Source: Schmidtea polychroa (lineage: Eukaryota). From it: a stretch of 64,000 bases of DNA. Position numbers and translations under genes: made by a program. The DNA lies in contig CM097885.1 in NCBI GenBank assembly GCA_044892525.1, positions 27,468,001 through 27,532,000 of the forward strand, given 5' to 3'. Positions 4,881-61,342 of the stretch are shown piece after piece (the first letter of the stretch is position 1; each line of letters opens with the position of its first letter). The notes under the pieces are model-generated. The model was not told the DNA's origin. It made no database searches and saw nothing but the letters and a program-made list of their open reading frames with translations.

Positions 4881-4934
4881 GGGCGCTAATTTCTCAGTTG
4901 CCCCCAGGCGCAAGAACCTCACCGTACGCCACTG
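4246..4934 (+). mobile_element. Non-autonomous hAT deletion derivative inserted in gag
   Basis: TIRs cagtggcgta/tacgccactg; perfect 8-bp TSD ggatgagg (4238-4245, 4935-4942); internal MPGRKLSGAENRKRKR resembles the N-terminus of ZMYM1-like hAT transposases. Confidence 0.9.
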
Positions 4935-5825: not shown

Positions 5826-5836
5826 GCGTGGTCGCC
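5826..5836 (-). promoter_or_regulatory. Primer-binding site of Gypsy element 1, probably tRNA-Arg
   Basis: TGGCGACCACG directly after the 5' LTR, complementary to a ...CGTGGTCG-CCA tRNA 3' end (tRNA identity from memory). Confidence 0.7.
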
Positions 5837-5960
5837 AGTTATGACGTCTTCAACTTCTAAATTCATAAAATCAATAAAACAATAATAAATGCAGTTAAAC
5901 TATATTTTCCAAAAACACGCTAAAAACCATATTATTAAAACAAAACAACTTTCCATAACT
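5837..5960 (-). repeat. 5' LTR of Gypsy element 1
   Basis: Identical to 692-815; adjacent to the PBS. Confidence 0.95.
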
Positions 5961-7202: not shown

Positions 7203-8288
7203 ATGGCGACCATTCCAACGGATCTGCTTATTGGAAGATTACTTCCAGAAAAATTCCACAGAGGAGGTGACCTCGAATTATTTATCAAAGAATGTCAGAG
7301 GTTCTTTGAAATAACGAAGACACCAGTAAAGACCCAAATGGTACTAGTTATTACACTTCTGGACAGGACTTTGATTGATGAATATGAAACCGCAGAAGGT
7401 AAAACCGTTGAACAGAAATTAAGAGCAGCTTTTCATCGACCAACGTCATTGATTGATGACTTAAGAGAAGCCTTGAACTACGAGCAAGGTAACGAATCAG
7501 CGGAAATATTTATAGAGAAAATATCAAAAATGACTAAAAAATTGGCCTCACACACTTGGAATGAGGAAGAAATTCAGAAATGTTTATTGACACATTGTGT
7601 AAAAGATAAAGAAGTCAGGAAAGAAATCGAAATGAAAGATCTCAAAACGGCGGAACAAATTAAAGAAACTATAAAGAAGATAGAAAAAGTTAACAAGGTT
7701 ATTGAACAAGTAAACACGGTGAGATCAATACGACCTACAACTGGGGGAAGAACTTATAGAGATGTAGTACAAGTTGGAGCCACGAAGAGAAAAATCAACG
7801 AATGGAAACCAGAGACAAGAATTAAAGTGATAGAATGCTGGACGTGTCAAAAACCGGGACACAGTAGCAGAGAATGTAATATAAAAAGAAGATTTCAATG
7901 TTATGCATGTGGTGTTGAAGGTCACATACGAAGAGAATGCCCAACAATCAAATGTCATAGATGCAATGCACGAGGACACAAAGAAAGAGAGTGCTACACA
8001 AATATGGAAAGACGAAATCAAGGAAGAGATCGAGACCAAAGGAAGATGTCAGGAGGAAGAATTCAAAGAAATACCTATCAACAAAGGGAAGATATGTATC
8101 AATCAAGGAACGTACATCAAAGACAATGGGGAAACCAACAATATAACAGAAAAGATATTGCAGCTATCGAGTCTGATGATGAGATGATGAATACAAAACA
8201 GTCAAGCCAGCCAGACGAGTATAACAGGGAGAATGACCCAAACGAGCACGCTCCGTCAAACGGGACATTGATCGGAGCAATTTACTAA
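7203..8288 (+). CDS. gag: Gypsy Gag with three CCHC zinc knuckles
   Basis: Open frame; CWTCQKPGHSSREC, CYACGVEGHIRREC, CHRCNARGHKEREC; first ATG at the LTR/PBS junction is 7203. Confidence 0.9.
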   Translation: MATIPTDLLIGRLLPEKFHRGGDLELFIKECQRFFEITKTPVKTQMVLVITLLDRTLIDEYETAEGKTVEQKLRAAFHRPTSLIDDLREALNYEQGNESAEIFIEKISKMTKKLASHTWNEEEIQKCLLTHCVKDKEVRKEIEMKDLKTAEQIKETIKKIEKVNKVIEQVNTVRSIRPTTGGRTYRDVVQVGATKRKINEWKPETRIKVIECWTCQKPGHSSRECNIKRRFQCYACGVEGHIRRECPTIKCHRCNARGHKERECYTNMERRNQGRDRDQRKMSGGRIQRNTYQQREDMYQSRNVHQRQWGNQQYNRKDIAAIESDDEMMNTKQSSQPDEYNRENDPNEHAPSNGTLIGAIY

Positions 8289-8311
8289 GTAATATTGATT
8301 TCAACCAAAGA

Positions 8312-11300: not shown

Positions 11301-11657
11301 ACAACGGGAGTAAGCCCAGCAGAGATTATATTTGGGAGGAAAATCGACAGAATGAAATGGTACTCGAATAAAGAAATAAATAGAGAAGATATGGAAAAGA
11401 GAATAGAGGATAAAACACTAAAACCAAAAATAAGCAAAACAGTGAGAGATTTTGAAATGGAAGATTTGGTTTTGATCAAACAAGAAATTCGAAATAAAGA
11501 CGATGCAAGGTGGGAAGGGCCGTACAAAGTGATAAAGAAAATACATGAACGGAGCTACTTACTTAAAGATCAAAATGGGAAGATGGTAGTCAGAAATGTT
11601 GAGAAGATCAAACATTTTAAAAAAGGGGGATGTGAGGAGTTAAAATTAAAATACTAA
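8312..11657 (+). pseudogene. pol: Gypsy pol (PR-RT-RH-INT) with one frameshift and one nonsense codon
   Basis: LLDTGA protease; frameshift near 8830-8850; YLDD RT; LDTDAS RNase H; TAG at 10719-10721 inside the integrase HHCC region; DDE core (MDICG, VDCG, IER) and EGPY in 10755..11657. Confidence 0.92.
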
Positions 11658-12265
11658 ATTAAATTAGTTCATGATTAAAATTTGTAAAATTTTAATTGAA
11701 ACTTAAATTATTTTAAGATATTAAAATTGAAATGATAATTGAAATTTTAAAATAAAATAATTTTTATTAAAATTGAAATTCAAGTATGAATGCGATGGTA
11801 TGTTGATATTTGGTTGAAATTAAAATTTAGAAAATGTCCCAAGAATATTTGTTTATATAATCAGATTTAATGAAATATAATTTTGGATTTAATAGTCTTA
11901 GTAATTTATTTTGATGACAGAAGAATTAAATGTTATAGCTTCTAACAATCAGATTCGCCCATTACCCGTGGAACTGGCCGAGATCTACCCACCGGCACAA
12001 TCGAGTAAGCCCAAACGCAAGCGGCTAGGGCGAAATACCCGAGAAAATCTGAAAAGAGTCTGGCTATCGGAACAAGAGAAGTTAAGAAAACCCGGGTCAA
12101 CTCCAGCATCCCGATCACGATTGAATACATGGATTCTAATGTAGTGATACACATACTGTCAAGACTTGTGATAATTGAATAAATAGTTTAAACAATCTAA
12201 TGTGCATGAGGGTGAGTCTTGTGATCGTTGAAGACAACGAAGGTGTTTGAGAAAACAATTTCGGT

Positions 12266-19427: not shown

Positions 19428-19467
<40 letters not shown>

Positions 19468-21255
19468 TATTACCACTTAAGTTATATTTTGTTGTTCTTT
19501 CTCTATCCCGACGTATATCATCATAATGTAATACGGCTAGTATGCTATATAAAAACAGAATTGATCATTGTTTTGAACATTAACTAAAGCCTGACAGTTT
19601 TTCAGGTAATTTGGCGTTTTAATGTAACTTGAACCTAAGTAAATATCTTGATTTATATATATATGTCTGATAATTTAGTTAAAATCATAGTAACTTCTAA
19701 TATTTTATGAATTCTCCACCCACTACTTTGTTGAGTGTATTTCTCCAACTTTTCTTTTAATTTTTCAATTCCATCATTAATAAATGAAGATGACATTGTA
19801 ATTGCTTTATTCGACAAACACCATTTTTTAATTTCACCATCCTCTTTGATAAACTCTGCACAAAGTCCAAATTGGATTTTTACTGTCCCCATTCGTTGAA
19901 TATGATCTTCTATTTCTTTGATGAGACAATCTGGAACAACAATGTCAGGAGAATTAATTGCAGTTACATCGCTTGTCAATTCAACACGAGAACCATTTAA
20001 GTCAGACTCCCGACGTGGACACAATTGTATGTTAGAGACTCCATTTCCGTAAAATATTGACTTTCGTTTTATGGTGCCAGAGATTTGTCTAACTATATTT
20101 ATAATTAATATTAAACAACTTAAATAACATAACTTGTAACATATTCTTTAATCTGCTTAGGATCGTATGATGTATTCATTTTCGATTGTACTATAAAAAA
20201 TTAATAATTGTTAATAGTAGAAGGAGCATTACTTTCAGCGATCATCCTGCTCTTCGTTTCTTCGAATCTTCTAAGATGGTGTCCGTGTTGTCGTACAAAC
20301 ATTAACCACCTACCTGGTGATATAATGAGACATTCCGGACATATGTAACCCGATAAGGTAGAGTCATTTATCTTGAAATATGATGATGTAACTGATTTAC
20401 AGTTCTCCACATCTTCATGACTTTCGGCAATACAAAATTTATATAAACTCATCCGTTCACTAAAAGAAAATAATCATTAATATTAGATAGAGAATAAAAA
20501 ATTATTCACTTATATAAGTTAAATTAAAAGTTTAAATGACACACATTTGAAAAGTTACTGCTTATATATTACACATGATTAAATTCTGACCAATCAAAAT
20601 CAAGGAAGGGGTAGGAAAAATAAATGCATTACGTTGCAGTATTTTAAAACTTCAATATATTTTAAAACACATTTTGACGCTAAAGTTTACTTATTTAACA
20701 TTTTCATAATAATTTAATAAAAATAATGTGATGAACCCACAAAGTAATATCATTTTTCATCAAATTGCAAAACAGTAATAACGTTTTCATAAATATTACA
20801 ACAAAGTAGTAACATATTTCAGAAAATTTCAACAAAGTTGTAAAATATTTATCAAATTGTAACTAAAATAATAAAATAATTGCAACAAAGTAATAAAATA
20901 ATGATGTTAATTGGGACAAATCAATACATTATTTCGAAGACGGACAACAAATTAAAAAGAATATTGTAATAAATTGTGAAGTCTTTCAGTAAATTACATC
21001 AAAGTAATAACATATTTTGGAAATATTTCACCAGATGTAAAATATTTAAGCAAATTGCTATAAGATTATAAAAATATTGCAACAAAGTAATAAAATAATA
21101 CAAAATTTTAAACACTAGATCAATCCATTTTATAGAAAATTAATTTTTATCTCTATAATATATGAATAAATATCCAAGGAAATTACGTGTAACAATGTAT
21201 ATTCAGAATTTAATTCTCTACAACATGGCGCAAATACAATTTCAGTTTGGTGCTT

Positions 21256-21720
21256 TGTGTAATGCACACATGTTTTTACAATAAATTTGTATTTTTTCGC
21301 GCGGTTAACGTTATTTTCTTGGATTTTTATTCATATAATATATAGATAAAATTTAATTTTCTATAAAATAGCTTAATTAAAAATTATGTATATTGTTTAG
21401 TGTGTAATACACACATTTTTTACAATAAATTTGTAATTTTCATACATTTAACCTAATTTTCTTAGGATTTTTTTCATATCATATATAAATAAAATTTAAT
21501 ATTCTATAAAAATAACTTGATTAAAATTTATGTATCTTGATTTCTGTGTAATACACACATGTTTTTACAATAAATTTGTATTTTTCATACATTTAACCTA
21601 ATTTCCTTGAAATTTTATTCATATAATATATAGATAAAATTTAATTTTCTATAAATTGGATTGGTTAAAAATTATGTATCTTGTTTTGTGTGTAATACAC
21701 ACATGTTTTTTAATTTTCTA
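21256..21720. repeat. ~145-bp tandem repeat, about 3 units
   Basis: Motif tgtgtaatacacacatgttttt recurs near 21256, 21401, 21545 and 21690. Confidence 0.85.
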
Positions 21721-22309
21721 TAAAATGGATTGATCTAGAGTTTAAAATGTTGTATTATTTTATTACTTTGTTGCAATATTTTTATAATCTTATAACAATT
21801 TGCTTAAATATTTTACATCTGGTGAAATATTTCCGAAATATGTTATTACTTTGTTGTAATTTACTGAAAGACTTCGCAATTTATTACAATATTCTTTTTA
21901 ATTTGTTGTCCGTCTTCGAAATAATGTATTGATTTGTCCCAATTAACATCATTATTTTATTACTTTGTTGCAATATTTTTATTATTTTAGTTACAATTTG
22001 ATAAATATTTTACAACTTTGTTGAAATTTTCTGAAATATGTTACTACTTTGTTGTAATATTTTCTAATCTTGTTACAATTTGCTTAAATATTTTACAACT
22101 GTTGAAAATTTATCTGAAATATGTTATTACTTTGTTACAATTTTTATGAAAATGTTATTACTGTCTTGCAATTTGATGAAAAATGATATTACTTTGTGGG
22201 TTCATCACATTATTTTTATTAAATTATTATGAAAATGTTAAATAAGTCAACTTTAGCGTCAAAATGTGTTTTAAAATATATTGAAGTTTTAAAATACTGC
22301 AACGTAATG

Positions 22310-22425
22310 CTTTTATTTTTCCTACCCCTTCCTTGATTTTGATTGGTCAGAATATATTTATTTTTCCTACCCCCTTCCTTGATTTTGATTGGTCAGAATT
22401 TAATCATGTGTAATATATAAGCAGT
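22310..22425 (+). promoter_or_regulatory. Putative Pol II promoter (duplicated ATTGG/CCAAT box and TATATAAG)
   Basis: ttttgattggtcaga occurs twice (local duplication), followed by tatataag upstream of the 83-aa ORF and PolB; mirrored at ~20560-20600. Confidence 0.4.
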
Positions 22426-22529
22426 AACTTTTCAAATGTGTGTCATTTAAACTTTTAATTTAACTTATATAAGTGAATAATTTTTTATTCTCTATCTAAT
22501 ATTAATGATTATTTTCTTTTAGTGAACGG

Positions 22530-22781
22530 ATGAGTTTATATAAATTTTGTATTGCCGAAAGTCATGAAGATGTGGAGAACTGTAAATCAGTTACATCATC
22601 ATATTTCAAGATAAATGACTCAACCTTATCGGGTTACATATGTCCGGAATGTCTCATTATATCACCAGGTAGGTGGTTAATGTTTGTACGACAACACGGA
22701 CACCATCTTAGAAGATTCGAAGAAACGAAGAGCAGGATGATCGCTAAAAGTAATGCTCCTTCTACTATTAACAATTATTAA
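22530..22781 (+). CDS. Small Cys/His-containing protein upstream of PolB, unknown function (mirror copy at 20201..20452)
   Basis: 83-aa ORF with YICPEC and HGHH, open in both arms. Confidence 0.45.
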   Translation: MSLYKFCIAESHEDVENCKSVTSSYFKINDSTLSGYICPECLIISPGRWLMFVRQHGHHLRRFEETKSRMIAKSNAPSTINNY

Positions 22782-22957
22782 TTTTTTATAGTACAATCGA
22801 AAATGAATACATCATACGATCCTAAGCAGATTAAAGAATATGTTACAAGTTATGTTATTTAAGTTGTTTAATATTAATTATAAATATAGTTAGACAAAAC
22901 TCTGGCACCATAAAACGAAAGTCAATATTTTACGGAAATGGAGACTCTAACATACAA

Positions 22958-25900
22958 TTGTGTCCACGTCGGGAGTCTGACTTAAATGATTCTCGTGTTG
23001 AATTAACAAGCGATGTATCTGCAATTAATTCTCCTGACATTGTTGTTCCAGATTGTCTCATCAAAGAAATAGAAGATCATATTCAACGAATGGGGACAGT
23101 AAAAATCCAATTTGGACTTTGTGCAGAGTTTATCAAAGAGGATGGTGAAATTAAAAAATGGTGTTTGTCGAATAAAGCAATTACAATGTCATCTTCATTT
23201 ATTAATGATGGAATTGAAAAATTAAAAGAAAAGTTGGAGAAATACACTCAACAAAGTAGTGGGTGGAGAATTCATAAAATATTTGAAGTTACTATGATTT
23301 TAACTAAATTATCAGACATAATACATGTATCTGGTAAGTTTATTTACATTATATATATATATATATATATAAATATAAACAAGATATTTACTTAGGTTCA
23401 AGTTACATTAAAACGCCAAATTACCTGAAAAACTGTCAGGCTTTAGTTAATGTTCAAAACAATGATCAATTCTGTTTTTTATATAGCATACTAGCCGTAT
23501 TACATTATGATGATATACGTCGGGATAGAGAAGGAACAACAAAATATAACTTAAGTGGTAATATATATGTATTTAGAGTTAAAATGGAAATCAGATTGGT
23601 TTCCAATGAAGTTGGTTAACATTTGCCAATTTGAAGCAATGAATCCAAATCTAGCGATCAATGTTCTCAAATATAATAAAGATCCAATTAAACAAAAAAC
23701 TAATGATATTTTCAAGAATCCGTTCGTTGACTTGGTATATAGAAGTACTTCGACGGGATCTCAGATATATCTCCTATTGATTGAAGAAGGTAATATTTCT
23801 TTTAATCATTAAAAATATTAACTAAATTTTAGAATTAAATTATCATTTTTTGGCTGTAACTAATCTCGATCGACTGCTGAATTACAGAGATAGAGTAGAA
23901 GGAGTCAGAATCCAATCACATTGGTGTCATACATGTCTTCATGGGTTTCAAAAACGTCCTGCTTTTGAAAGACATATAGGTCTTTGTAGGAAGAATGTGG
24001 AGCGTACGACTCTATACTCAATGCCAGAGAATAAATATATCGAATTTAAAGACTGGAGTAAAACTATAAAACAGCAGTTTGTTGTCTACGCGGACTTTGA
24101 ATCAATATTACCTCTAGACGACAAACACTTCCAAAAACATGAGCCGATTGCATCTGAATTTGTGCTTCTTCATCAAGGTTGTCCGATCCGAAATGAAACA
24201 TTTGTTGGGAAAAACTGTATCATTCAGTTCATATAAGCATTGGATGATATAGCTACAGACATAGTTTATCCGTGGTATAAAATTAATGGATCAAAGGAAA
24301 TGATGGAACTCACGTGGGAACAGCAGGAAGAATTCACGACTCAAACTCATTGCTACCTTTGTAAAAAGATTATCAATATACCTGTTCGAGATCATGATCA
24401 TTTTATTGGTCAATATCTGTAAGCAGCGTGTCAAGATTGTAATTTGGCTAGAATAATCAATCCGTCTTTACCTGTTGCAATTGGAAAATTCCCCGATTGG
24501 AATTTAATTGTTATTCCTCAATCAACAGATAAGTTTTTCACACTTACAGCGACATCGAAAAGCAGAAGAATTAGATTCATTGATTCTTTACAATTTTTAA
24601 ATAGCAGCTTGGCAAATTTATCAAAAAACTTGCCACGTCTTCCACTTACTTCAAAGATTTTCAATTCTCATCTAATAACTGGTAAAGGCATATTTCCTTA
24701 TGATATTGCTACGTCAATGGATGTTTTACAGTCAATAACAGAATTACCATCGATTTGGGAGGGAGTTAGTCAAGAAGATTATATACATGCAAATCAAATC
24801 TGGCGACAATACAACTGTGAGACACTGCTAGATTACATGCTCGTATATCTCAAGTTGGATGTTTTTCTGTTGGCCGATGTTTTTGAAGCTTTCAGAGAAA
24901 AACATTTGACGAAGATGGACTTGAGGCTCTATCGTTTGTTTCCATACCCGGATTAAGTTGGGCATCAGCTATTAAACAGTTACCTGAACCGGTAGAACTT
25001 ATTCAAGATCCAGAGCTTTACCGTTTATTTGAAGCTGGTATTCGTGGTGGAATGACATTTATCAACAAACATCATGTTGAAGCTGATGAATCAACACAAA
25101 TGTCAAACCTAGATGTTAATAATTTATATGGATGGGCGCTGTCGCAAAAACTTCCTGTTGGTGAATTTAGATGGATAAATGATCAGACTGAAATGAATGG
25201 TATTGTTGAAAGATGTGCAAATGGGGATGAGTTTGATTGAGATCGTGGATATGTTCTAGAGGTTGACATCGTCATTCCTGTTAGTATACAAGATAAGTTA
25301 GATGATTTACCTATAGTTCCTGAGCTTTGTTATCCACCTGGTAGTAAAGTTGAAAAGCTGTTGTTAACTCATGAGCCTAAGAAAAACTATGTAGTTAATG
25401 GTAGAGTTTTGACTGAATGGTTGAGTTATGGCGCAAAAGTCACAAAAGTTAATTGTGCTGTAGAATTCAAGCAAGTAGCTATTTTCAAAGGCTATATTTA
25501 TTACAATACTCAAATGAGAGCAGCTAGTACAGATTCATTTCAGCGAGATTATTATAAGTTAAAGAACAACAGTTTATACGGTAAAACCGTGGAAAACCTT
25601 AAGAAACGTATAAATTTGAGATTATGCAGCAAAAGCAAAAGATTGATAACTTATTGTAGTAATCCTATGTTTCGTCGTAGCATCAAGATTGCGGATGATC
25701 TCATTGCTGTTATACTTGATAAGGAAATGGTGTGTTTAGATAGACCAATGTATATTGGACAAACCGTACTTGATTTATCTAAACTTCGCATGTACCAGTT
25801 TCAATATAAAGAACTACAGAGTTATAGAGAAGAATTCAATTGTCAAATTAATATCGTAGCCGGTGACACAGATTCCTTCTTTTTAGAGTGTAAAAATGTT

Positions 25901-26389
25901 GATTTACGCTTACAACTGTATCCAAAAATGGTTGTCGATGGGCTCCTAGATACTTCAAATTATCCAGTGACTGATCCATTGTTCTCAGATAAAATTTGTT
26001 CGGTAATCGGGAAACTCAAGGATGAGAATAAAGGAAATCAATATAAAGAATGGGTGTTTCTTCGACCCAAGTGCTACTCACTCCAAGGCGATAAAAACAC
26101 TCTAAAAGCCAAAGGAATAAGACTTACAAACTCTAATCTTACACATGAAGCCTATAAAAAAGTGTATACTGATGGTGGAACAGTGAGCATCCCACAAAAA
26201 AGAATAGGAAGTGTCAATCATCAGTTGTATACTTTCATGACCGAAAAACGAGCTCTCCAATGTTTGGATGATAAAAGGTATTGGTACAATTGTAATGAAA
26301 GTTATGCCTACGGTCACTATAAGATTCGTCAAATGCATATTGCAACTGCTATGTCTAGAAATGAATGCAAATCGAAACAAGCACTTTAA
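22958..26389 (+). pseudogene. polB: Polinton/Maverick-type protein-primed family B DNA polymerase, intron-containing, decayed
   Basis: SSGW, GSSYI..P, zinc finger, VYADFES exonuclease, CYLC..RDHDH (endonuclease VII-like), FIDSLQF, KGIFPY, IRGG, LDVNNLYG, KLKNNSLYGKT, GDTDS, RPKCYS; GT-AG introns at 23334-23395, 23558-23576, 23790-23832; several stops and frameshifts. Confidence 0.92.
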
Positions 26390-33987: not shown

Positions 33988-34177
33988 GTTAGGGTTAGGT
34001 TAGGGTTAGGTTAGGGTTAGGTTAGGGTTAGGTTAGGGTTAGGTTAGGGTTAGGTTAGGGTTAGGTTAGGGTTTGGTTAGGGTTAGGTTAGGGTTAGGTT
34101 AGGGTTAGGTTAGGGTTAGGTTAGGGTTAGGTTAGGGTTAGGTTAGGGTTAGGTTAGGGTTAGGGTTAGGGGTTAGG
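33988..34177 (+). repeat. Interstitial telomere-like array, 11-bp unit TTAGGGTTAGG
   Basis: Alternating TTAGGG and TTAGG over about 190 bp. Confidence 0.93.
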
Positions 34178-46516: not shown

Positions 46517-47088
46517 TACTATGAAGTCCGAATACAAAAGCGATGATAAATTGTGTGGATTTGTGCGATGTTTAACAGCACTCGCACATGTCCCAGTTGA
46601 TGATGATGGTGAATCATTCGACTTGCTAGCTAAACGGATGCATAAACACGAAAAAAGATGAACCGACCGTGGATCAAGAGTTCATGGATGAATCTTCCGT
46701 GAATGAAAAGTTTGCATGCCATTCTGGTTTACGTTGGAAACAGCATAAGGGATATAATGATGGTCATCTGTAACCCACCAATGATATATTGAGAATAGTG
46801 AAGGTATTGATAAATGACAAAGAATTCACATCCGACCATACATTCTCTGCGAACTAGTGACATCCAGATTTTTTTGAGTTAAATTAGATTTATTTTTTCT
46901 AAAATTATTTTATTTTAAGTACATACACACCCATGATTTGTTATTTTAAACCTTAGTTGTTAACATGAATTTAATTGATTATTTCAAACAATCAAATTAT
47001 TAAATAATTTTATTTTTATTTTATTGTGGCCTTTCATTAGCGATTTTAATAAGAATTTTTCATAATTCTTATTTAATTATTTTTTATT

Positions 47089-47678
47089 ATTTTTCGAGCC
47101 ACTACATTCCTAATTTATCTGATTACGGTTTTTGTATGAAAATACAACCAATAATCATTCTTCATTTTTGATATTTTTAATTCGCTCTTTCATTTACTAT
47201 TCTCATTCTTTTGAGTCCACAGGTTTTTCGAATGCGTTGTTTCTCACTTAACTATATCATTGTAACTAATTGCGTTTATCAATTTTATTATACTTGTTTA
47301 TTTATCCTCAATGTGTTGTGTACTTTACTTTGTACTGTTTTATGTATAATCATATATTTTGATTCGATTTGGTGCAGTTTCCTTGCTATATATTTACAAC
47401 GCATTTTCGGCTCTAGCCCAACAAAATGGTTAGATTGTTGTTATATTGACGTGGGATTTTGGATTTCCTTTGAATTGGGTTTTCATTTTCTGTCTTTTGA
47501 GTCAATGTTGATAGGACATTTATTTGATCACGTACTGTAATGCTTAATTTGGGCGAATGTCTCGATGGCCCTGTTCTTGTATTTCAACACTACAACTATA
47601 CCAAGTTTCAGTCCAATAGTTGCATAACAGAAATCGTAATGATGTAGCACAACATAAAATGAAAAGGTTATATGCCAA
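47089..47678. repeat. Left copy of ~590-bp direct repeat flanking the Polinton
   Basis: Near-identical to 60757-61342; ends exactly at the agtagt terminus. Confidence 0.92.
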
Positions 47679-48572
47679 AGTAGTGTGTTTATATCCCTAA
47701 CCAAAACAGCCCTCCCAACAAAACATACCTCCATTACGCCTAAACCATTAGAAAAACAATCTAAAACTTATACTTTTATAGTATTTTAACCCTATATTTT
47801 TGAAAACAACCACCCTTAATGACTCTAAACCCTCAAACTCAAAAGCTTCAAACTAAAAACATAAAGAGAATAGAAAAGAAAATGGTATTATGAAAAAGTT
47901 GGAGGGCTATTTTGGTTAGGGATATAAACACACTACTTGAGGATGTCAACTAGCAACTTGCTATTTGACTAATTTGACTCATTAAAAAATAAATATAAAA
48001 ACATCATAAAAAATCAAAACAGGGTTATACAAAAGTTAAATATTTTATAAATCTTGAAGAATAAAAAATTTTATGAAATAGTAAAACTGCTCTGAGAGGA
48101 CAGTGGTTTTTTTTTTTTCACTGTCCTCTCAACAGTTTTTTTGATCCGGATCATTTTTTTATTCAACCTCTTTCGTTTATCAAATCTCTTCCAATATACA
48201 AGCTGGCCAGACTTATACATCAGAATCAATTCGATCTTGAAAGTACAAATGAATTCGAAAGCGAATCCGAAAGAGGTCCGAAAACAACTGAGAAAGGGAT
48301 CGATCCGGGTGTGTTCGAAAGACTGGTGGCGATAATTACCGATTCGCCATCACACCCGTTTCAATATATATTTTTTTCATATTTATGTTTAAAAATTAAT
48401 TAATTAATAAAAAAATAAAATAAATAAAATAAAATATACAACTACTTTATAAATCTAAGATACCCACACCATTTTCAATATTATTTTCAAATTTTTAATA
48501 TTATTTTATGTTGAAAAAAAACTAACCTCAGATGTGATTTGAACCGCTATCTATTTGAACCACTGTGCCAGT

Positions 48573-48842
48573 CTAGCCCACTGCGCTATCTTGCTTTGGA
48601 TTTTTGTCATTTTTACAACTATAAATAATCGATTCAAGTTCTTTAACTCTTTCCTGTAATTGTTTCATTTTCTTTAACCTTATCTCAGCAACTTCTACAG
48701 CTTTCATGTAAAAATGTCGATACTTTTCATTCTCTACCATCAACTCTTTGATGTATTCTAATGGTTCTTCTTCTCTTCTTTTCATTCTCTTATGTTTAAC
48801 TTCATTCAATTCATTTCTCATTCTTTCAATTAAGTCAGTCAT
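48573..48842 (-). CDS. Small coiled-coil protein of the Polinton, unknown function
   Basis: 89-aa charged helical ORF with aaaATG context, divergent from the capsid gene. Confidence 0.55.
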   Translation of the reverse strand: MTDLIERMRNELNEVKHKRMKRREEEPLEYIKELMVENEKYRHFYMKAVEVAEIRLKKMKQLQERVKELESIIYSCKNDKNPKQDSAVG

Positions 48843-48889: not shown

Positions 48890-50176
48890 ATGAATAATAT
48901 AAAAATTCAAGAAAAAAATAAATTAAATCTTGATTATAATAAAGAATTTACTCATGAAATCAAGAAAAATGATGTACTTAAAATATCCCCAACTTCAGGA
49001 TCTATAGCAAACTTAAATCGTAGGGGTGATATAGTTTTTCAATCTCTTCAAACATCAAACCCAATAGATATTTGTAATGCCAAATTATATTATAAAATTG
49101 AATTAGAAATTGAAGCAAACAAAGATATAACCCTAGAAAATAATTTCTTTCCAAATTTATTCTCCAACATGAGATTAAAACTAGGATCATCAGAAATTGT
49201 AACTGTTTTACATCCAGGAGTATATTCTACAATGTTAAATTTTATTTTGACTGGTTGTGATTATAAAAATGAATATGGTAAATTAACAGGTTGGATTCCT
49301 GATGTTAATAAAGGGGATTTAGATAAAGATGGTTTAGATATAAATTATGCTTACTATAAAAGAGCTGAACTTTATAAATCTAAAAAATTTGAAGGTTATT
49401 TTGAATTAAAACACTTGTTTGGATTCCTTCAAAACTATAATCGTATACTTCATAATGTTTTTATAGAATTAGTTTGTAATAGAGTAGAAGGTGATAAAAG
49501 ATTGTTCTATGGAGATAAGGATACAACAGCTAAATTAAAAATATCAACACTTGAATTGCATATACCTGAATGGCCATTAAATCCACATTCTGAAATCAAA
49601 CTCCTTGAAAGATTAAATTCCAACAAGTCTATAAATGTAAATTATTTAAATAGAATCTGTAGTGAATTTAGTATGACAGAGGGTTCAACATATTCTATAA
49701 AGGTAGCAAATTTAGCATACCGACCAAGATATATCTTGATTGGATTCAAAGAAGTAGATTCATCTTTCCAAAAAAATAACAACCTATTTATTCAAAAGAT
49801 TGAAAATGATAATTTAAAAACAATCCAAATTCAATTAAATAGTTCTTATTATCCAATAAATAGAATGGAATTTAATATTGAAAATAATGAAAACATATTC
49901 CCATATCTAAATTATATTGGAACATGTTATGATTTCAAAGTTGAACCACAATTAAGTTTAGAAGATTTCAAAAATTTATATTCTATATTTTGTATAAATG
50001 TATCAGATCAAGATGATAGATTAGCCATAAATAATGTTGATGTTACACTTCATGTAACAAAGGATTCTAATTTCAAAGCTAAAGTATATACATTAATATT
50101 AGAAGAAAAGAAAATAGAAATGAAATTATATGGTGGAAAGATTTCAATTATTGAAAATGTTAGGGGAGATTCTTAA
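48890..50176 (+). CDS. Major capsid protein (double jelly-roll, Polinton PY/hexon-like)
   Basis: Intact 428 aa, beta-rich; NNFFPNLFSNMRL, PRYILIGF, YSIFCINVS motifs; genomic context. Confidence 0.8.
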   Translation: MNNIKIQEKNKLNLDYNKEFTHEIKKNDVLKISPTSGSIANLNRRGDIVFQSLQTSNPIDICNAKLYYKIELEIEANKDITLENNFFPNLFSNMRLKLGSSEIVTVLHPGVYSTMLNFILTGCDYKNEYGKLTGWIPDVNKGDLDKDGLDINYAYYKRAELYKSKKFEGYFELKHLFGFLQNYNRILHNVFIELVCNRVEGDKRLFYGDKDTTAKLKISTLELHIPEWPLNPHSEIKLLERLNSNKSINVNYLNRICSEFSMTEGSTYSIKVANLAYRPRYILIGFKEVDSSFQKNNNLFIQKIENDNLKTIQIQLNSSYYPINRMEFNIENNENIFPYLNYIGTCYDFKVEPQLSLEDFKNLYSIFCINVSDQDDRLAINNVDVTLHVTKDSNFKAKVYTLILEEKKIEMKLYGGKISIIENVRGDS

Positions 50177-50193: not shown

Positions 50194-51633
50194 ATGTCTC
50201 TAAATAAACCGTATTGGAGATGTGAAACTTGTAATTGTCAAGTTACAAAATATCACAAAGCAAATCATTTAAAAACTAAAAAACACATACTTGGATCAAA
50301 TACTAATTCTTGGTTAGAACCCAATCCTTCAAGTAGATTTGCTTTTGAGAATCAACTCTTTGAAGGAGGTGATCTACAATCTTCAAAAACAACATCTTCA
50401 ATATTAAAACCTTTTACTACAGAAAAATATCCAGGTGAAAGACATTTATTTAAACACAACTATACCGGACCAGGAACAAGATTAGATATTAGATTAGATG
50501 AAAATAATAATCCTAAACAAGGAGAAGAACCAATAAATAGAATTGATCAAGCAGCTTTAAAACATGATATTGCTTACAATTCAACAAATCTTAGAGATAG
50601 ACATGTTGCAGATGTGAATTTAATACATGATTTAAATAATATACAAAATCCATCAACTCAAGAAAAGATTCAAAAAGCTCTAGTTAAATTAGCAATGAAA
50701 GGTAAGATTTTCATAGGCTTAGGACTTCCCCCTAGGAAAGCAAAAGATGTTGCTAATAAAAAGATTATTGAACAAGCAGACGCTGAAAGATCCCTCGAGA
50801 ATATATCCAAGACTAGTTTACAAACCCCAACAGAATCACAAATAAAATATGCCAACGAATTACACCATGAATTTAGAAAAAATAAAAAATATTTAAAAGT
50901 TCAAGTACATGAAAAAGATCAAACATGGTCTGCAGATTTAGTCTTTATGCCAACCAAATCATCAGACCCTGAAAAATATAAAATAATTTTAACTGTAATA
51001 GATTTATATACAAGATTTGCTTTTGCAAGGTGTTTAGAAAATAAAACAGGATATTCTATTACAGAAGCATTTGAAAATATATTTGAACAACATCAAAGAA
51101 TTCCAAAATATTTATGGTGTGATAAAGGAACAGAATTTTATAACAAAGTTTTTACAAAGTTTTTAAATGAAAATGATATTAAATTATATTCAACAGAAAA
51201 CGAAGGAAAAGCAGTCGTAGTTGAAAGATTAAATAGAACATTAAAAAATAAAATGTGGAAATATTTTACTGCTATTGGAAAACAAAAATGGAACAATGAA
51301 TTGTTACAAAAGATTGTAAATGAATATAATAATGATGTACATAGTTCTATAAAATCAACACCTTTAAATGCTTCCTTGAATCCTTTGGAACTCATAAATC
51401 CTGTTGAAAATGATGTTATTGAAAAACCAAAGTTTAAAATTGGTGACCGAGTAAGAATATTTAAATATAAAAATAAATTTGAAAAAGGATTCACAGCAAA
51501 ATGGACAAATGAAATTTTTATTATAAATAAAATACATTATACAACTCCAATAACATATAGCATCATTGATTTAAATAATGAAAAAATATTAGGTAGATTT
51601 TATAATAATGAACTACAGAAAACAGATTTCTAA
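50194..51633 (+). CDS. Zinc finger + parvovirus-type phospholipase A2 + retroviral-type integrase fusion
   Basis: CETC..H..H; NYTGPG...IDQAALKHDIAY; WSADL, WCDKGTEF, VVERLNRTLK (DDE); FKIGDRVRI C-terminal domain; one open frame of 479 aa. Confidence 0.9.
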   Translation: MSLNKPYWRCETCNCQVTKYHKANHLKTKKHILGSNTNSWLEPNPSSRFAFENQLFEGGDLQSSKTTSSILKPFTTEKYPGERHLFKHNYTGPGTRLDIRLDENNNPKQGEEPINRIDQAALKHDIAYNSTNLRDRHVADVNLIHDLNNIQNPSTQEKIQKALVKLAMKGKIFIGLGLPPRKAKDVANKKIIEQADAERSLENISKTSLQTPTESQIKYANELHHEFRKNKKYLKVQVHEKDQTWSADLVFMPTKSSDPEKYKIILTVIDLYTRFAFARCLENKTGYSITEAFENIFEQHQRIPKYLWCDKGTEFYNKVFTKFLNENDIKLYSTENEGKAVVVERLNRTLKNKMWKYFTAIGKQKWNNELLQKIVNEYNNDVHSSIKSTPLNASLNPLELINPVENDVIEKPKFKIGDRVRIFKYKNKFEKGFTAKWTNEIFIINKIHYTTPITYSIIDLNNEKILGRFYNNELQKTDF

Positions 51634-52418
51634 AACAAACTTTTCCATATTTCAGCTTCTTCTCTATCCAAATAAATATAATTATATTTTTCTTTCCAAT
51701 GATTATCAACAAACATATCAAACATATTCTTATCAGGTTCAACATTTGAAAATAAATCATTATAAATCATATTCTTATCACGGCGATCTAATTTAAAAAA
51801 TATAAAACAATTAGAATTATTTCTTATTGAATTTTTATCTAAAGCATAATAAGTTTGAGATATATAAATAACATTACAATTATTATGTCTTCCTCTTGTA
51901 AAGTAACTCTTTTGAATCTCTTGATTTTTCATATTAACAACATCATCAAATATAACTAGAATCTTTTTATCTTTAGGAAGTAAATCACAATGTTAAACAT
52001 CTTCAGGTTTATTAGAGAATAAAACTTGAATCCCCTGCCCCTCTTCACAAATATAATCATTTTTATTACTAATATCTGATTCTAAAATCTTTTCCTTATA
52101 CCAATCAACCATATCACAAGGTTGAAAAACTTCTTCAGGACATCTATGTTGATTTTTAAAAATATCAATTATTGCTTTTTTAGTTAATTTATTTGCAAAT
52201 CCACATTTCAAAAGTTGTAATTCTGGTTGATTTATAGTTGTAGAGTAAAAGATTAAATTATTATAATCTAAAAAACCATCTTCAAGCAACATTTTCAAAA
52301 CAAGTACATTCTTTCCACATCCAGAAGAACCAACAATTAATAATCTAAAATTATCAGGAAATACTTTATTATTAAATTTAGATTTATGTCTATTTAAAAT
52401 TGGTTTCCAAATATCCAT
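51630..52418 (-). pseudogene. A32/FtsK-like DNA packaging ATPase with one in-frame stop
   Basis: Walker A GSSGCGK; TAA at 51993-51995; read-through gives Walker B LVIFDD, then RGRHNNCNVIYISQ. Confidence 0.9.
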
Positions 52419-52433: not shown

Positions 52434-53027
52434 ATGACAACTGAAGAATCTTTGCAAGAATTAATAAATTCAAATAAAAATAAATCAGTAGTAATTGATG
52501 GTAAAAAATATTTTATTGGAAAACATGTAAAAGAACAAGTTAGAGCGAAGATTAAAGAAGGTGGCATTCTTCCATTAGCTGCTTTAATACCTGCAATCAT
52601 TGCCGGACTATCAGGTGCTGCTGAAATAGCTGGAGGAATCGCAACTACAGTTCAAAAAGCTAAAGAATTTCAAAAGACAGACCTAGAAAAAGAAAAATTA
52701 CAAACTGAAATCGATTCAATAAAAAAGAAGGGACTGTCCGAAGGTCAAAATTCCGTTGGAAAAGGTCTCTATCTTAATCCATATCAGAAAGTGTCCGAAG
52801 GTCAAAAGTCTCAGGGGAGTTCCTTCGTTGGAAAGGGTCTCTATCTTGATCCTTATAAAGGCCGCGGTTTAAATGATTTTTTAAAAAATCAAATTTCATC
52901 ATCTGAATCTTTATCTTCAAAAGATAAAGATGATTTAAAAAAAATGTGTAAATCTTTAAAGAATGGATGCCTTTGTAAAACTAAAAATGGTAAAGGATTA
53001 TATTTAAAATCTTGGAAGGAACCATGA
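52434..53027 (+). CDS. Putative virion core/membrane-active precursor protein
   Basis: EGG followed by hydrophobic ILPLAALIPAIIAGL; repeated GKGLYL motifs; 197 aa. Confidence 0.6.
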   Translation: MTTEESLQELINSNKNKSVVIDGKKYFIGKHVKEQVRAKIKEGGILPLAALIPAIIAGLSGAAEIAGGIATTVQKAKEFQKTDLEKEKLQTEIDSIKKKGLSEGQNSVGKGLYLNPYQKVSEGQKSQGSSFVGKGLYLDPYKGRGLNDFLKNQISSSESLSSKDKDDLKKMCKSLKNGCLCKTKNGKGLYLKSWKEP

Positions 53028-53938: not shown

Positions 53939-54403
53939 ATGACTAATCCTTCAATATTAGATTTTTTAAAAACATTTGGAATAAATGCAAAAACAAATTT
54001 TGATTTAAAAGATTATGCAAATTATTTAAATTTAAAAATAAAAATATTAATGAATGATGAATTATCAAGTCTGAAAGATATTCTGAAAGAAGACACTCAA
54101 AAGAAACGAAGTCCCCTGAATATTATTATAAATTATCAAAATTCAAATGAGAAAGGATCTCATTGGGTTTGTATATATAATAAATCTATATACTTTGATT
54201 CTTTTGGGATTAAACCTACTAAAGAAGTTGAAGACTATCTCTCGAGGGGTTCCACTTTTAATTCTTTACAAGTTCAACCTAATAATACTAAAATATGTGG
54301 TATTATAAGTTTATATGTTTTGTATAGAATGAATAAATCCAAAGGAGAAGGTTTCACTTCCTTAATCCAAGAAATTTATAATGATTTAAAATCTCTATTA
54401 TGA
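53939..54403 (+). CDS. Adenain/Ulp1-like cysteine maturation protease
   Basis: GSHWVC, YFDSFG and QVQ....CG catalytic motifs. Confidence 0.9.
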   Translation: MTNPSILDFLKTFGINAKTNFDLKDYANYLNLKIKILMNDELSSLKDILKEDTQKKRSPLNIIINYQNSNEKGSHWVCIYNKSIYFDSFGIKPTKEVEDYLSRGSTFNSLQVQPNNTKICGIISLYVLYRMNKSKGEGFTSLIQEIYNDLKSLL

Positions 54404-55170
54404 AAATGGAGCTTCGCAACCTTCTGGAAGATAATTTTAAAAAAATGGTAAACATAATGTCAGATAAATATTCAAAAACTTTATCTATAAATTCAAAAGA
54501 ATCAGACTTTACTATAAACTTTCAAGATTCAATAAAATTAGATCAAGATTTAAATTATGAATTAGGTCTATTATGGTTTTGTGTTTATAATACTATTTTT
54601 AATATAACTAAAGATAATAACATATTTTATTATATAAGCCCAAAATCTACAGATAAGATTATAATAACAATCGAACCTGGGGCTTATGAGATAAAAGATT
54701 TAAATAATATACTTTCTAAAAGAACAAATGGAGCCATTAAAATTAAAATGGATTTACCAACTTCAAAATGTATAATGACTTTAGAGAATATAGGAATTCA
54801 TTTTCAAAATAATAGTTTCTTTAGAACAATTTTAGGATTTACACGAAACCATTATATCACACCTATAGTTGAGAATATAACATCAGAAAATATTATAAAA
54901 ATAATAAATACAAACACAATAAATATTCATTGTGATTGTATAACAGGTTCTTATAATAATAGTAAACAAACAAATGTTTTATATTCCTTTCCCTCAAACA
55001 CAGTTCCTATGGGATATAAAATAGTTGAAAGAATGAATCCTCCAAATTATTTGCTTTTATGTAGAAAATATATAATGGATATTAATTTTAAAATTCTTAA
55101 CCAAGAAGGAGAATTGATTGATTTTAATGGAGAAGAGATTTCAATGTATTTACATCTGAAACAGGTTTGA
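54400..55170 (+). CDS. Minor capsid protein (penton-like, Polinton PX)
   Basis: 256 aa; PGAYEI, ILGF, INIHCDCITGSY, IDFNGE motifs; follows the protease. Confidence 0.8.
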   Translation: MKMELRNLLEDNFKKMVNIMSDKYSKTLSINSKESDFTINFQDSIKLDQDLNYELGLLWFCVYNTIFNITKDNNIFYYISPKSTDKIIITIEPGAYEIKDLNNILSKRTNGAIKIKMDLPTSKCIMTLENIGIHFQNNSFFRTILGFTRNHYITPIVENITSENIIKIINTNTINIHCDCITGSYNNSKQTNVLYSFPSNTVPMGYKIVERMNPPNYLLLCRKYIMDINFKILNQEGELIDFNGEEISMYLHLKQV

Positions 55171-55652: not shown

Positions 55653-58306
55653 CAGGGCTGGCAAAAGCGTCGACCGCGGTCGACTAGTCGACCGCGTAGC
55701 TATCGAAAGTAGCCCGCTAGCACTATGGAAAATTGCATATAAAAATCAGTTTTTTATTTATTGAATTTCTAACTTTATAAACATATTTAAAATAAGTTTC
55801 GATTCATATGACAAAAAAATTCCAATAAGAAACATAATATTAGTCAGATAACACTCAGAGTGTAGTAAATTTTTAGTTTGAAATTCAAATATATACAGTT
55901 AGCTAATAATCAGAATAAATTTCATGTGTTTGAACAAGTAGGTCATAAAATAAAAGCAAAACATTGACGCTACAATCTTCGATAAGGAATAAAAAAATAA
56001 AAAACAACCAAAATAAAATACAACAAACGTGTGTTTGTCTATTTCAATTTTGAAATCAAATTGTTTTCGTTAGAAAAATTTGAAAGCTTGAAGTATTCAG
56101 TATTGAATAATACCTGCTTATAATATTAATTTCAAAATTTTTTTATTAAAAAAAATTCTTTATAAAAGTTAACATTTTTAATTTTTGAGTATGTAAGTGT
56201 GTTTAACATTAATTTTCATATTTAATTTATTTTAGCTTTTATTATTTTCTTGTTTTAGCCCCAATGACACAACGGGCCAAAAAAACTAAAACGTACCATT
56301 ATAATACTGAATGGGAACAGGAATTTTTTTTCATAATGATGAAAGATAAGTGTGTTTGTCTCATTTGTAATTCAAACGTAGCACTACCTAAAAGAGCTAA
56401 CGTTGAACGACATTTTCGAACAGTGCACAAACAGTATGAAATTGACTTTCCATTACATTACGAGGTACGAAAAGACAAAGTCAAGCAGTTAAAGTCTCAA
56501 TTAGGTGCACAACAAACTTTTTTTACGAAATTTAACTCAAAATCAAAAACAGCTACCCTAGCATCATTCAAGGTAGTTAATATTTTGATGAAACATAAAA
56601 AACCTTTTGGAGATGGCGAAATATGGAAACAGGCGTTTGTTGAAGCTGGTGAGGTGTTATTCAAAGATTTTAAAAATAAATCCGAAATAATGGATTGTAT
56701 CAACAATATGTCATTGACGCGCAATACTAGCACGCAAAGAATGGTGGACATTAGCAAAAACTTGGAAGATATTTTGCGGCAAGATATTCGAAAATGCCGC
56801 TTTTTCTCTTTGCAATTTGATGAATCTACAGATTTCACTGATACTGCGCAACTATGCATCTTCATTCGAATGGTTTTTGATGATATGTCAACCAGAGAAG
56901 AATTATTGACTATTCTTCCAATGAAAGGACAAACAAGGGGTCAAGATATTTACAATTTATTCAAGTCTTTTATAAGTCGCACCCATTTCCCGATTCACAA
57001 GTTGGTATCAATTACCACGGATGGAGCTCCGTCTATGATCGGAAAACATGTCGGATTTGTAACACTTTGCAAAAAAGATGAAGAAATTCCCAGTTTTCAT
57101 TCGTATCATTGCATTATCCACCAGCAAACCTTATGCTCCAAAGTGTTGAACTCTAACTATGTAATGAATATTGCGTTTAAAATAGTAAATTCGATACGTG
57201 CAAGAAGTCTACAACGACGTCAATTTCGAACTTTGCTTGAACAATGTCAAATTGAAAATACTGAATTATTGTTACACACGGATGTAAGATGGCTTAGCCG
57301 TGCAGCATTTTTAAAACGATTTAGAGATCTTTTGCCCGGAATAAAACAGTTTTTGACTGGAAGAGAAGAATTATATCCCGAACTGGAGGATAAAAGTTGG
57401 CTGATAAATCTTGCTTTTCTTTGCTACATTACAGAGCACCTGAATAAATTAAATTTACAGCTTCAGGGGAGACACAAATCAATTCTTGACATGATAACGG
57501 CAGTAAAGACGTTTAAAGAGAAACTGTCCTTGTTTGTGCCTCAACTAGAACGGGGTGATTTGAAACATTTAAAAAACATGGAAGAAGAATCCAAAAATGC
57601 GCCAGGAATTCTTTAGGATAAATATACAAATCAAATTACTACCCTTTTAAATGAATTTAACACACGTTTCGCAGATTTATCTAAAATTGCAAATATTTCT
57701 ATGTTCATGTCATTCCCGTTTAATGATGTTATTGATACAGAGGAGATCGCTACTCAGATTAATGAATTTCTGGATTCAGATTCAGCTTGCTTAGAAGATG
57801 AGATAATAGCGTTGAAAAGCGACATTTACTTAAAATCAAGAGCTACAACCGAAGATAATTTTTGGAATCTTATTTCAGAAGAAAAATATCCAATTTTGCG
57901 GAGAGTAATTGGATATATGTCCGCATTTTTTGGATCCACCTATCTTTGTGAATCAGCCTTTTCTTCAATGAATGTCATTAAAACAAAACATCGATCTTGT
58001 TTGACAGATGATCATTTGGAATCATGCTTGCGGATCGCCATAAGCTCCTATTGCCCGAAATACGAAGAACTTGCTGATAAGATGCAGTGCCACGTATCAG
58101 GTGCAAGTAGTAGCAGTAAATAATATTATATTAAGATATGTTTACGTTCTAGTAAAGTATTATAAGTTTTTTTCTAATTCGTTTTGTATTTAAATAGAAT
58201 AAATAGAATAACTACAGGTAACAATTGAAAATAGTTTTTCTGGTAGACCGCCAGATTTAATTTAGTTAAAAGTCGCCCGCAAGACTTGAAAGTTTTGCCA
58301 CCCCTG
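55653..58306 (+). mobile_element. Full-length hAT (Buster/Charlie, GTF2IRD2-like) transposon
   Basis: TIRs cagggctggcaaaa/ttttgccacccctg; perfect 8-bp TSD atatataa (55645-55652, 58307-58314). Confidence 0.95.
56264..58123 (+). pseudogene. hAT transposase with a single in-frame stop
   Basis: CLIC..RHF zinc finger, DESTD, TTDGAPSM, HCIIH, VRWLS, STYLCESAFS; TAG at 57614-57616; both ORFs share one frame. Confidence 0.93.
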
Positions 58307-59592: not shown

Positions 59593-60752
59593 TCAGTTAT
59601 GGTTGAAAGCCAACCTATGAATCATTAATTTATAATCTTTAAATTCTTTATCACTTAGACCTTTTATATATTCAGAATCAGTATTAAAATATTTAAGTTC
59701 TAAACATATAGGATTAAAAACTTGAGAATATAAAGGCTTCTCGATTTCTCTCTCGGGATAAATAATTTCAACATTATAAATATCAAGATCGGTAATATTT
59801 GTATCATATAACTTATTCAACTTTTCTAGATTTTTTATTATCGGTATTAAATTATTTCCAATAGGTAGAGTTGTCTTTAAATCACTTAGGATGAATCTTT
59901 TATCATCATAATTTGATAATGATACTTTTTGAGATTCTATCAAGTGAATATCATGGTTTTCACTTTTAAGTTGATGTATTTCATCAATTTTATCTTTATG
60001 ATTTGGATTCAATGTATCTATATAATCTTGATGAGAAAGATTCTTTGCAACTGATTTCTGTATTCCTTTACATCTGTTATCCTTTACAGGTTTTTCTTCT
60101 TGTCCCTCTGGTCCTTTATATATAGGATATCTATGTGTAATGGTTTCTTCTGTTTCTGGAGTTTTAAATATAAATGATCTAGTTATAAATTCAGGATTTC
60201 TAAATGTTTCGTATGAATATTGTTTAGCACGAATAAATATTCCATTTTCTATAGGAGTAAAAGGTTTTTCATCTTTAAACGAAAATAATTCTCCAGATGA
60301 ATTTATTAAATTTGAAAGTATAGGATTTTCGGCTATATCTCTTTGTAAATCATGAGTTCTTATTGTTAAAAACATTGAATCTGTATCCATTGCATGCATT
60401 GATATATTAGAACCATATATAGGTTGTAAGATGTTATAATATGTTTCATACATTTGTAATTTTGAAAGTTCTAAAATTGAAAACCCTATAAATATTGGTT
60501 TGTTGTATGTTTTCTCAAAATTCTTTAGTTCTATTGCAGTAAGATTTTCAGAAAATACTTGTGCGTTTTTAAATGTAGGCTTTCCTAGCATACGATTATA
60601 GCGCTTAATATCTTTGGTAGTATTAGTTAAAAGTTCAATATGAGTATATTTATCAACATTCTCCATTGTTTTCCCAAAGACTGAATTGTTTAAAAGTTTA
60701 TAATTATTATCTTTAAAAAGGTTACCTTCTCTTTTTGCAATGTTTCGGCACC
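59593..60752 (-). pseudogene. polB: C-terminal part of protein-primed PolB, 5'-truncated
   Basis: YKLLNNSVFGKTMEN (read upstream of the listed ORF), PIFIGFSILELSK, MDTDS, RAKQYS, KGI, YDDKR. Confidence 0.9.
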
Positions 60753-60756
60753 TAAT

Positions 60757-61342
60757 ATTTTTCGAGCCACTACATTCCTAATTTATCTGATTACGGTTTT
60801 TGTATGAAAATACAACCAATAATCATTCCTCATTTTTGATATTTTTAATTCGCTCATTTACTATTCTCATTCTTTTGAGTCCACAGGTTTTTCGAATGCG
60901 TTGTTTCTCACTTAACTATATCATTGTAACTAATTGCGTTTATCAATTTTATTATACTTGTTTATTTATCCTCAATGTGTTGTGTACTTTACTTTGTACT
61001 GTTTTATGTATAATCATATATTTTGATTCGATTTGGTGCAGTTTCCTTGCTATATATTTACAACGCATTTTCGGCTCTAGCCCAACAAAATGGTTAGATT
61101 GTTGTTATATTGACGTGGGATTTTGGATTTCCTTTGAATTGGGTTTTCATTTTCTGTCTTTTGAGTCAATGTTGATAGGACATTTATTTGATCACGTACT
61201 GTAATGCTTAATTTGGGCGTATGTCTCGATGGCCCTGTTCTTGTATTTCAACACTACAACTATACCAAGTTTCAGTCCAATAGTTGCATAACAGAAATCC
61301 TAATGATGTAGCACAACATAAAATGAAAAAGTTATATGCCAA
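60757..61342. repeat. Right copy of ~590-bp direct repeat
   Basis: Near-identical to 47089-47678; continues tgccaa|ctacga with no element terminus. Confidence 0.92.

Follow-up and report, generated by a model that had tools for sequence, protein, structure and literature searches.

The window, a stretch of 64,000 nucleotides from Schmidtea polychroa, contains a Polinton/Maverick element in which a single unbroken frame joins a phospholipase A2 (PLA2) to a DDE integrase. The features of the element are listed in Table 1, together with related protease-integrase fusions discussed below; ↓ marks the bond at a predicted or reported cleavage site.

Table 1. Features of the Polinton/Maverick element in the window, and protease-integrase fusions at related loci.
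Feature	Position	Strand	Remarks
Left terminal inverted repeat	47679..48614	.	starts AGTAGT; matches both ends of other copies, inverted
Capsid gene	48890..50176	+	PF21738, E 1.9e-26
PLA2-integrase fusion ORF	50194..51633	+	479 aa
C2H2-like zinc finger, variable N-terminal module	50221..50286	+	C10, C13, H25, H31
N-terminal Gly site GG↓D, residues 58-60, predicted protease site	50365..50373	+	
Parvovirus-type PLA2 domain (Pfam span)	50443..50688	+	Ca-loop 50461-50475; H124-D125..Y128 50563-50577; D140 50611-50613
C-terminal Gly site G175-L↓G177, predicted protease site	50716..50724	+	
Variable PLA2-integrase linker	50725..50832	+	length differs widely among homologues; dN/dS 0.62
rve integrase	50833..51630	+	D248, D310, E344; beta-rich C-terminal domain; no chromodomain
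Putative A32-like packaging ATPase	51630..52418	-	in-frame stop near 51993 in window copy
pX-like putative core protein	52434..53027	+	separate gene; six GG/GxG motifs, one of them a GG↓IL site
Adenain/Ulp1-family cysteine protease	53939..54403	+	H75, D87, Q113, C120 intact
Putative minor capsid (penton) protein	54400..55170	+	homologues in related elements; no informative Pfam match
Remnant of putative protein-primed PolB	59593..60777	-	element ends near 60759 in window copy
Protease-integrase fusions	L073:274-1803, L085:128-1471, L112:1787-3145, L149:2740-4248		Gly motif at junction

Inverted repeats of approximately 900 bp were found at both ends in other copies of the element. Two other copies for which both ends were read are about 14-16 kb long, and one of the two is flanked by a 6-bp target-site duplication, which is named as a Polinton feature in PMC8097293 (here and below, papers are cited for the portions that were consulted). 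The window copy itself is broken: it carries the stop in the ATPase gene and a hAT-type insertion, and its right end is lost. The ATPase retains a Walker A motif, the match to Pox_A32 (E 0.003, below the cut-off) falls on the broken first half, and the frame was unbroken in 15 of 30 copies. The protease found no matches when used as a single-sequence query. A profile built from 22 relatives (A4) matched ASFV pS273R (E 1.2e-10) and adenain (E 9.4e-9), and the four residues listed in Table 1 were kept in 47-49 of 48-49 rows. The best PDB sequence match of the pX-like protein was a chain named PX (9lr9_E), at a weak E of 1.7; this protein is homologous to the pX part of PLA2X at locus L141. The putative penton was named from its size and position. 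The PolB fragment had no Pfam match but carries motifs that look PolB-like; the same region in other copies has open frames of 860-1078 aa. No ATAAAC box was present within 45 nt upstream of the 10 genes checked, and contigs from three presumed-RNA runs and one unlabelled run covered the fusion ORF only in pieces.

Several other repeats lie in and around the element. At 55653-58306 the element is interrupted by a hAT-like transposon whose ORF encodes a Spin-doc zinc finger (PF18658); this insertion is missing from the other copies examined. The left terminus and the truncated right end are each abutted by one unit of a direct repeat of 594 bp (98.5%; 47085-47678 and 60753-61342), which may have been left by aberrant integration or by local rearrangement. 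Elsewhere, nested long inverted repeats of up to 959 nt (99%) at 19456-26389, with a PolB-like fragment at 25514-26389, probably belong to a second Polinton-related element. Two elements resemble LTR retrotransposons by their ORFs (1444-5866, minus strand, and 6887-11930, plus strand), the latter with identical 300-nt direct repeats at its ends, and at 33988-34174 there is an interstitial tandem repeat of 11 nt in which TTAGGG and TTAGG units are combined.

The earlier note on this DNA read the ORF as one frame with PLA2 calcium-loop and catalytic residues followed by an intact DDE integrase, and both the Pfam matches and the conservation of these residues bear this out. Phospholip_A2_4 matched residues 84-165 (E 1.2e-9) and rve matched residues 239-332 (E 7.7e-12), both above the cut-off. 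In the PLA2 part of the window protein, Y90-T-G-P-G94, H124-D125, Y128 and D140 are all intact. When the protein was aligned with its 120 best homologues, H124 was kept in 115/115 and D125 in 114/115 rows with a residue at that position, Y128 and D140 in 116/116, and the integrase residues D248 and D310 in 120/120 and E344 in 119/120. The zinc finger, which the same note placed in the ORF, is real within the copy family of the window, where the two Cys and two His residues were visible and were retained in 46-47 of 47 source-genome copies. Zinc-finger Pfam models gave no match to this N-terminal Cys/His module. Outside that family the claim did not hold generally: both Cys residues were present in only about 25 of the 120 best homologues, the rest having DUF5679 or almost nothing at the N-terminus. 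Since the finger precedes PLA2, it is not the integrase's own zinc-binding domain.

An AlphaFold2 model of the fusion protein (87 sequences, mean pLDDT 84) predicted separate folded units, namely a small N-terminal unit, a helical PLA2 extending to residue 174 and an integrase beginning at about residue 214. Predicted disorder or low confidence was seen in the model at 36-66 and 177-180, the positions of both Gly sites. Fold searches with the whole model returned only integrases (retroviral, mavirus and MELD-virus). The PLA2 part alone matched models of parvoviral VP1 and entomopoxvirus PLA2, and its best match among solved structures was a rice PLA2 with a modest score (Z 7.3, rmsd 3.8, 91 aligned).

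The fusion is not peculiar to the element in the window. When the source genome (781 Mb) was searched with the fusion protein, a query that favors fused copies, 89 of 9,816 candidates were scored; both domains were in one frame in all 89, at 91-100% identity, and 64 of the 89 were free of internal stops. A control search used PLA2 only, with a distant PLA2 protein as the query. Of the 30 loci fetched, 27 had a scorable junction and 25 of these were in frame, one had a stop, and one shifted farther along the linker without a slippery site; of the three remaining loci, two were fused with a deletion and one had a stop. Comparison of 53 copies, in which the window copy was the reference throughout so that the comparisons are not independent, gave dN/dS values of 0.22 for PLA2, 0.24 for the integrase core, 0.19 for the C-terminal domain, 0.37 for the zinc finger and 0.62 for the linker. 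PLA2 and integrase are thus both under purifying selection, at a dN/dS of about 0.2.

Beyond the source genome, 889 proteins matched the fusion at E 1e-10. Both Pfam domains were present in 107 of the best 120 of these matches, and both of our own profiles were matched by 35 of the best 150 representatives at 50% identity. The earlier note had put forward recurrence of the fusion in other copies and species as a check; recurrence in other copies and outside the source genome is established, and an assembly error or a one-off fusion is ruled out by the 89 scored copies and by recurrence in the databases. The architecture is common in undescribed sequences. Shorter PLA2 relatives include proteins annotated in Lottia gigantea. 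Some PLA2-integrase fusions (L057:514-2499, P0106 and P0112) have an insert of 240-270 residues between the domains.

The borders of the PLA2 domain are marked by glycine motifs. FEGG (56-59) and FIGLG (173-177) lie where the earlier note had placed them. At the N-terminal site, a GG or GxG was found within 7 residues before D60 in 74 of the 89 rows having an extension of at least 8 residues, compared with a background of 0.002 per window in the integrase; the other 15 rows with an N-terminal extension had no such motif nearby. Several homologues that lack the extension start at or just before the Asp. At the C-terminal site, G175 was kept in 121/121 rows, and the sequence fit either GX↓G or GG↓X in 107 of the 121 and neither in 14. 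The P1' residue was Gly in 96 rows. P1 was Gly in 11 of the 25 rows without P1' Gly but in only 5 of the 96 with it (Fisher p 8e-6, uncorrected for relatedness; the 11 rows with P1 Gly fall in 6 tree groups).

The resemblance of these sites to adenain sites, as suggested in the earlier note, held in part. The adenovirus protease AVP requires Met, Ile or Leu at P4 (PMC4246237), but at the C-terminal site the window protein has Phe at P4, and across the 121 rows this residue is Lys in 71 and Leu or Met in 11. For the mavirus protease, cutting at GG↓X and GY↓G has been reported (PMC6048507). Judged by sequence, the Gly sites lie outside the strict adenain P4 rule and within the looser mavirus rule. 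Both the integrase and a lipase-like protein, the latter with GK↓G where its two fragments meet, are present in mavirus virions (PMC6048507). The last PLA2 helix stops at G175, a residue that also persists in stand-alone PLA2 proteins whose chains finish a few positions after it, so it may be partly structural.

Within the window element, GG/GxG motifs were found in the pX-like protein (6), at the capsid C-terminus and at the PLA2 borders; neither the integrase nor the putative penton nor the PolB fragment had any. The motifs recur at junctions in related proteins. A GxG or GG is present at the junction in all four in-frame protease-integrase fusions (Table 1), and PLA2X-type proteins have GG/GxG motifs at each boundary. 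Three other proteins (P0279, P0302 and P0264) resemble protease-integrase fusions. At loci L144 and L148 (minus strand), PLA2, the pX-like protein and the protease share one open frame with GxG/GG between them; the protease there may have its own Met despite the shared frame.

In many relatives, PLA2 and the integrase are adjacent and in different frames. This was studied at 183 loci on contigs labelled as viral, metagenome or prokaryote, the metagenome part being the best 80 of 493 matches. After duplicates were dropped, 42 unique PLA2-then-integrase junctions comprised 20 at -1, 14 in frame, 5 at +1 and 3 with a stop. Of these, 28 had both frames otherwise open (16 at -1, 8 in frame, 3 at +1 and 1 stop), so that the 20 intact split junctions favored -1 over +1 by 16 to 3 (p 0.004), with one stop; the 16 are related (46-79% integrase identity) and the p-values given here overstate independence. 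No Met precedes the conserved integrase start in 14 of the 16, and stop-start coupling of the ATGA type is out for these 14. The earlier note held that separate ORFs in other copies would count against its reading; relatives of this kind do not refute it, since most adjacent split pairs look like -1 frameshift junctions.

Consistent with this, an in-phase X XXY YYZ heptamer with both frames open was present in 12 of the 16 intact -1 junctions, mostly as A_AAA_AAC or A_AAA_AAA, the first heptamer lying 0-9 codons past the Gly site. Same-length windows elsewhere in the same genes predict 0.74 such junctions, and redrawing the codons with the peptide fixed predicts 5.0 (P 3e-5). Only 2 of 13 scorable in-frame fusions had a heptamer at the junction, and the linker of the window copy has none. 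Of the four -1 junctions without a heptamer, three have the non-canonical N_AAA_AAA and the fourth (L139) looks like an in-frame gene broken farther on. A strong downstream hairpin (z -2.9 to -4.6) was found in 4 of the 12 heptamer junctions and was missing from the other 8. A stem of 11 pairs, placed 7 nt past the heptamer and closed by loops of differing length, is common to L053, L054 and the truncated L058; all 33 cells are paired and two pairs are changed on both sides among the three sequences, a degree of covariation that was not significant in a shuffle control (119/500). A_AAA_AAC with a stem 7 nt downstream is present in these three loci and in L087.

Other properties of the split genes are less uniform. 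The PLA2 proteins of the frameshift type end in GL↓G followed by 5-18 mostly basic residues, and the first Met in the integrase of such elements lies about 45 residues inside the enzyme. Lys/Asn tails were uninformative as a sign of frameshifting, KN being found in 3 of 28 short PLA2 proteins. The close relatives L065, L068 and L080 are in three different frames and several junctions are plain A runs; some splits are surely decay or sequencing error. A DNA scan of viral contigs for a heptamer with integrase motifs yielded 62 loci, of which one was relevant and already among the loci examined. Polinton-type integrase and capsid genes were also found on contigs filed as bacterial or archaeal MAGs (L178-L204), where they are likely contamination.

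In the integrase tree, which was quick and midpoint-rooted and so leaves the ancestral state unsettled, -1 junctions were spread over several clades and alternated there with in-frame fusions. A minimum of 6 state changes was required among 51 tips, compared with 13 expected if states were shuffled (L139 was left out of this count and L189 relabelled as in frame). The window integrase belongs to a wholly in-frame clade (support 1.00). A stand-alone integrase with its own Met was the label on 46 of 113 tips, one of them wrongly, and at L141 and L145-L147 PLA2 is apart from an integrase that has its own Met. Since many Polintons have a stand-alone integrase starting with Met, the link between PLA2 and integrase is not obligatory.

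Taken from the sequences, these results make it probable (about 0.7) that PLA2-integrase is a precursor polyprotein of the virion core that is cut by the element's own protease, and that relatives make it by -1 frameshifting. Cleavage, frameshifting, PLA2 activity, packaging and a role in entry are all steps that we infer. The fusion product would be packaged whole, through PLA2 or its N-terminal part, and the protease would cut both Gly sites during maturation. The freed PLA2 would be the predicted membrane-breaching enzyme, a role drawn from the analogy with parvoviruses that is stated in PMC8502044 and PMC4642659, while the freed integrase would stay with the genome and travel in the particle. 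In many relatives a -1 ribosomal frameshift immediately past the second Gly site would give rise to this polyprotein, yielding much PLA2 with a short basic tail and little PLA2-integrase, a ratio like that of retroviral Gag to Gag-Pol; in the family of the window, the in-frame form would yield PLA2 and integrase at 1:1. The earlier note had proposed a packaged polyprotein, cut by the element's protease, that couples entry to integration. The Gly motifs, the protease-integrase junctions, the intact protease and the mavirus precedent give the first part of this indirect support. The coupling has been recast: after cleavage it would consist of co-packaging and ratio control, with no physical link during entry.

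Three other explanations were weighed. The fusion might remain uncut, with PLA2 staying attached at the N-terminus, where it directs the integrase to the particle or aids passage of the genome-integrase complex across a membrane, and with the Gly motifs acting as helix caps or hinges. We consider this unlikely. The position of G175 at the end of the last PLA2 helix, its retention in stand-alone PLA2 proteins, a P4 residue that does not fit adenain and a linker of only 3-5 residues in some relatives are all in keeping with an uncut protein, but the alternation of GX↓G with GG↓X suits a protease rule better than a fold, mavirus uses motifs of the same two forms (PMC6048507), and the motifs are found at protease-integrase and PLA2-pX junctions too while being nearly absent from the integrase (0.002 per window). 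Somewhat less likely still is a cleaved in-frame fusion whose split relatives reflect decay, homopolymer errors or an integrase made from a non-AUG start or by reinitiation. Among the intact loci there are indeed three +1 junctions and one stop, one family occupies three frames, a Lys-rich tail makes A runs likely, and L139 has the appearance of a broken in-frame gene. Against this, the breaks cluster about 0-9 codons past the Gly site in genes that are otherwise open, -1 is favored 16 to 3, heptamers exceed the peptide-fixed null, and A_AAA_AAC is followed at 7 nt by a stem at four loci (L053, L054, L058 and L087).

A purely intracellular transposon, in which the fusion lends the integrase a promoter and a start codon, a host protease of the SUMO/Ulp type or none at all acts on it, and PLA2 has no role in entry, seems very improbable. 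Such an element would account for the very many copies, which suit intragenomic spread, and no run among the listed matches is recorded as RNA; yet purifying selection acts on PLA2, whose catalytic residues are near-invariant, and the capsid, putative ATPase and protease genes have been retained.

In retroviruses, Gag-Pol places a virion protein ahead of the integrase, either in frame or by way of a -1 slippery heptamer and stem, and the viral protease releases the enzyme. The likeness of the Polinton genes to this arrangement is convergent. The element is dsDNA, the upstream partner of the integrase is a PLA2 core protein rather than a capsid protein, and the protease is a separate cysteine enzyme. 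We lean, by a small margin over even odds, toward the broader view that a large, undescribed branch of Polintons converged on the Gag-Pol strategy, in which the integrase would never be made except attached to a protein of the virion core (PLA2, or the protease in some lineages), its ratio would be set by a -1 frameshift that was repeatedly gained and lost, and a maturation protease would free the enzyme in the particle.

The closest known elements are adintovirus/Polintoviricetes Polintons with PLA2X (Starrett et al. 2021, PMC8502044), which share with the window element inverted termini, an rve integrase, a jelly-roll capsid, a putative A32-like ATPase, an adenain-like protease, a parvovirus-type PLA2 and a pX-like protein. 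In those elements PLA2 is joined to pX and is apart from the integrase, whereas in the window PLA2 is joined to the integrase and pX is separate; unlike theirs, the window integrase lacks a chromodomain. Mavirus (Born et al. 2018, PMC6048507) has a related protease that cuts GG↓X and GX↓G, and its virions hold an rve integrase and a cleaved lipase-like protein. These two mavirus proteins are separate products, MV02 and MV13, the latter predicted to be an alpha/beta hydrolase rather than a PLA2 (PMC6048507). Adenovirus pVI is a membrane-disrupting core precursor with a C-terminal xGL↓G site from which AVP releases a short basic peptide (PMC4246237), a form of site that resembles the GL↓G and basic tail of frameshift-type PLA2 proteins. 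It is not an enzyme and has no link to an integrase, and the Met, Ile or Leu required by AVP at P4 is mostly absent here. The PLA2 of the parvovirus VP1-unique region (PF08398) belongs to the same domain family, with the same calcium loop and catalytic residues, and is tethered to a capsid protein where the PLA2 of the window is tethered to an integrase.

The view that PLA2 of Polintons is usually encoded by a separate gene, held in the earlier note, agrees with published descriptions, in which it is joined to pX as PLA2X (PMC8502044), is a separate gene called CAP (PMC5803895), or is a lipase gene whose product is probably packed in virions (PMC4642659). For adintoviruses, -1 frameshifts have been suggested for the penton and hexon-protease genes, not for the integrase (10.1101/2024.03.25.586562). 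The consulted portions of PMC3671162, PMC11161782, PMC8097293, PMC7805220, PMC12567637, 10.1101/341131, 10.64898/2026.06.19.733378 and 10.64898/2026.07.28.741253 make no mention of a PLA2-integrase fusion. No published description of the fusion or of its frameshift was found in the sources covered; Repbase, subscription papers, bioRxiv supplements and the supplementary slides or maps of PMC8502044 may show the fusion. The fusion is thus a conserved and apparently undescribed architecture within a known class of element.

These findings affect how such elements are read. Because integrases of frameshift-type elements do not have a Met until about residue 45 of the enzyme, their genes are likely mis-annotated, and some copies that appear to be broken may be intact. 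They also bear on whether animal Polintons form infectious particles and on how the integrase reaches a new genome, for which a conserved polyprotein with protease-type sites and a frameshift switch would be a concrete mechanism of delivery. If a branch of Polintons did converge on a strategy like that of Gag-Pol, this would account for delivery of the integrase to a new nucleus and would argue, indirectly, for spread of these elements as particles.
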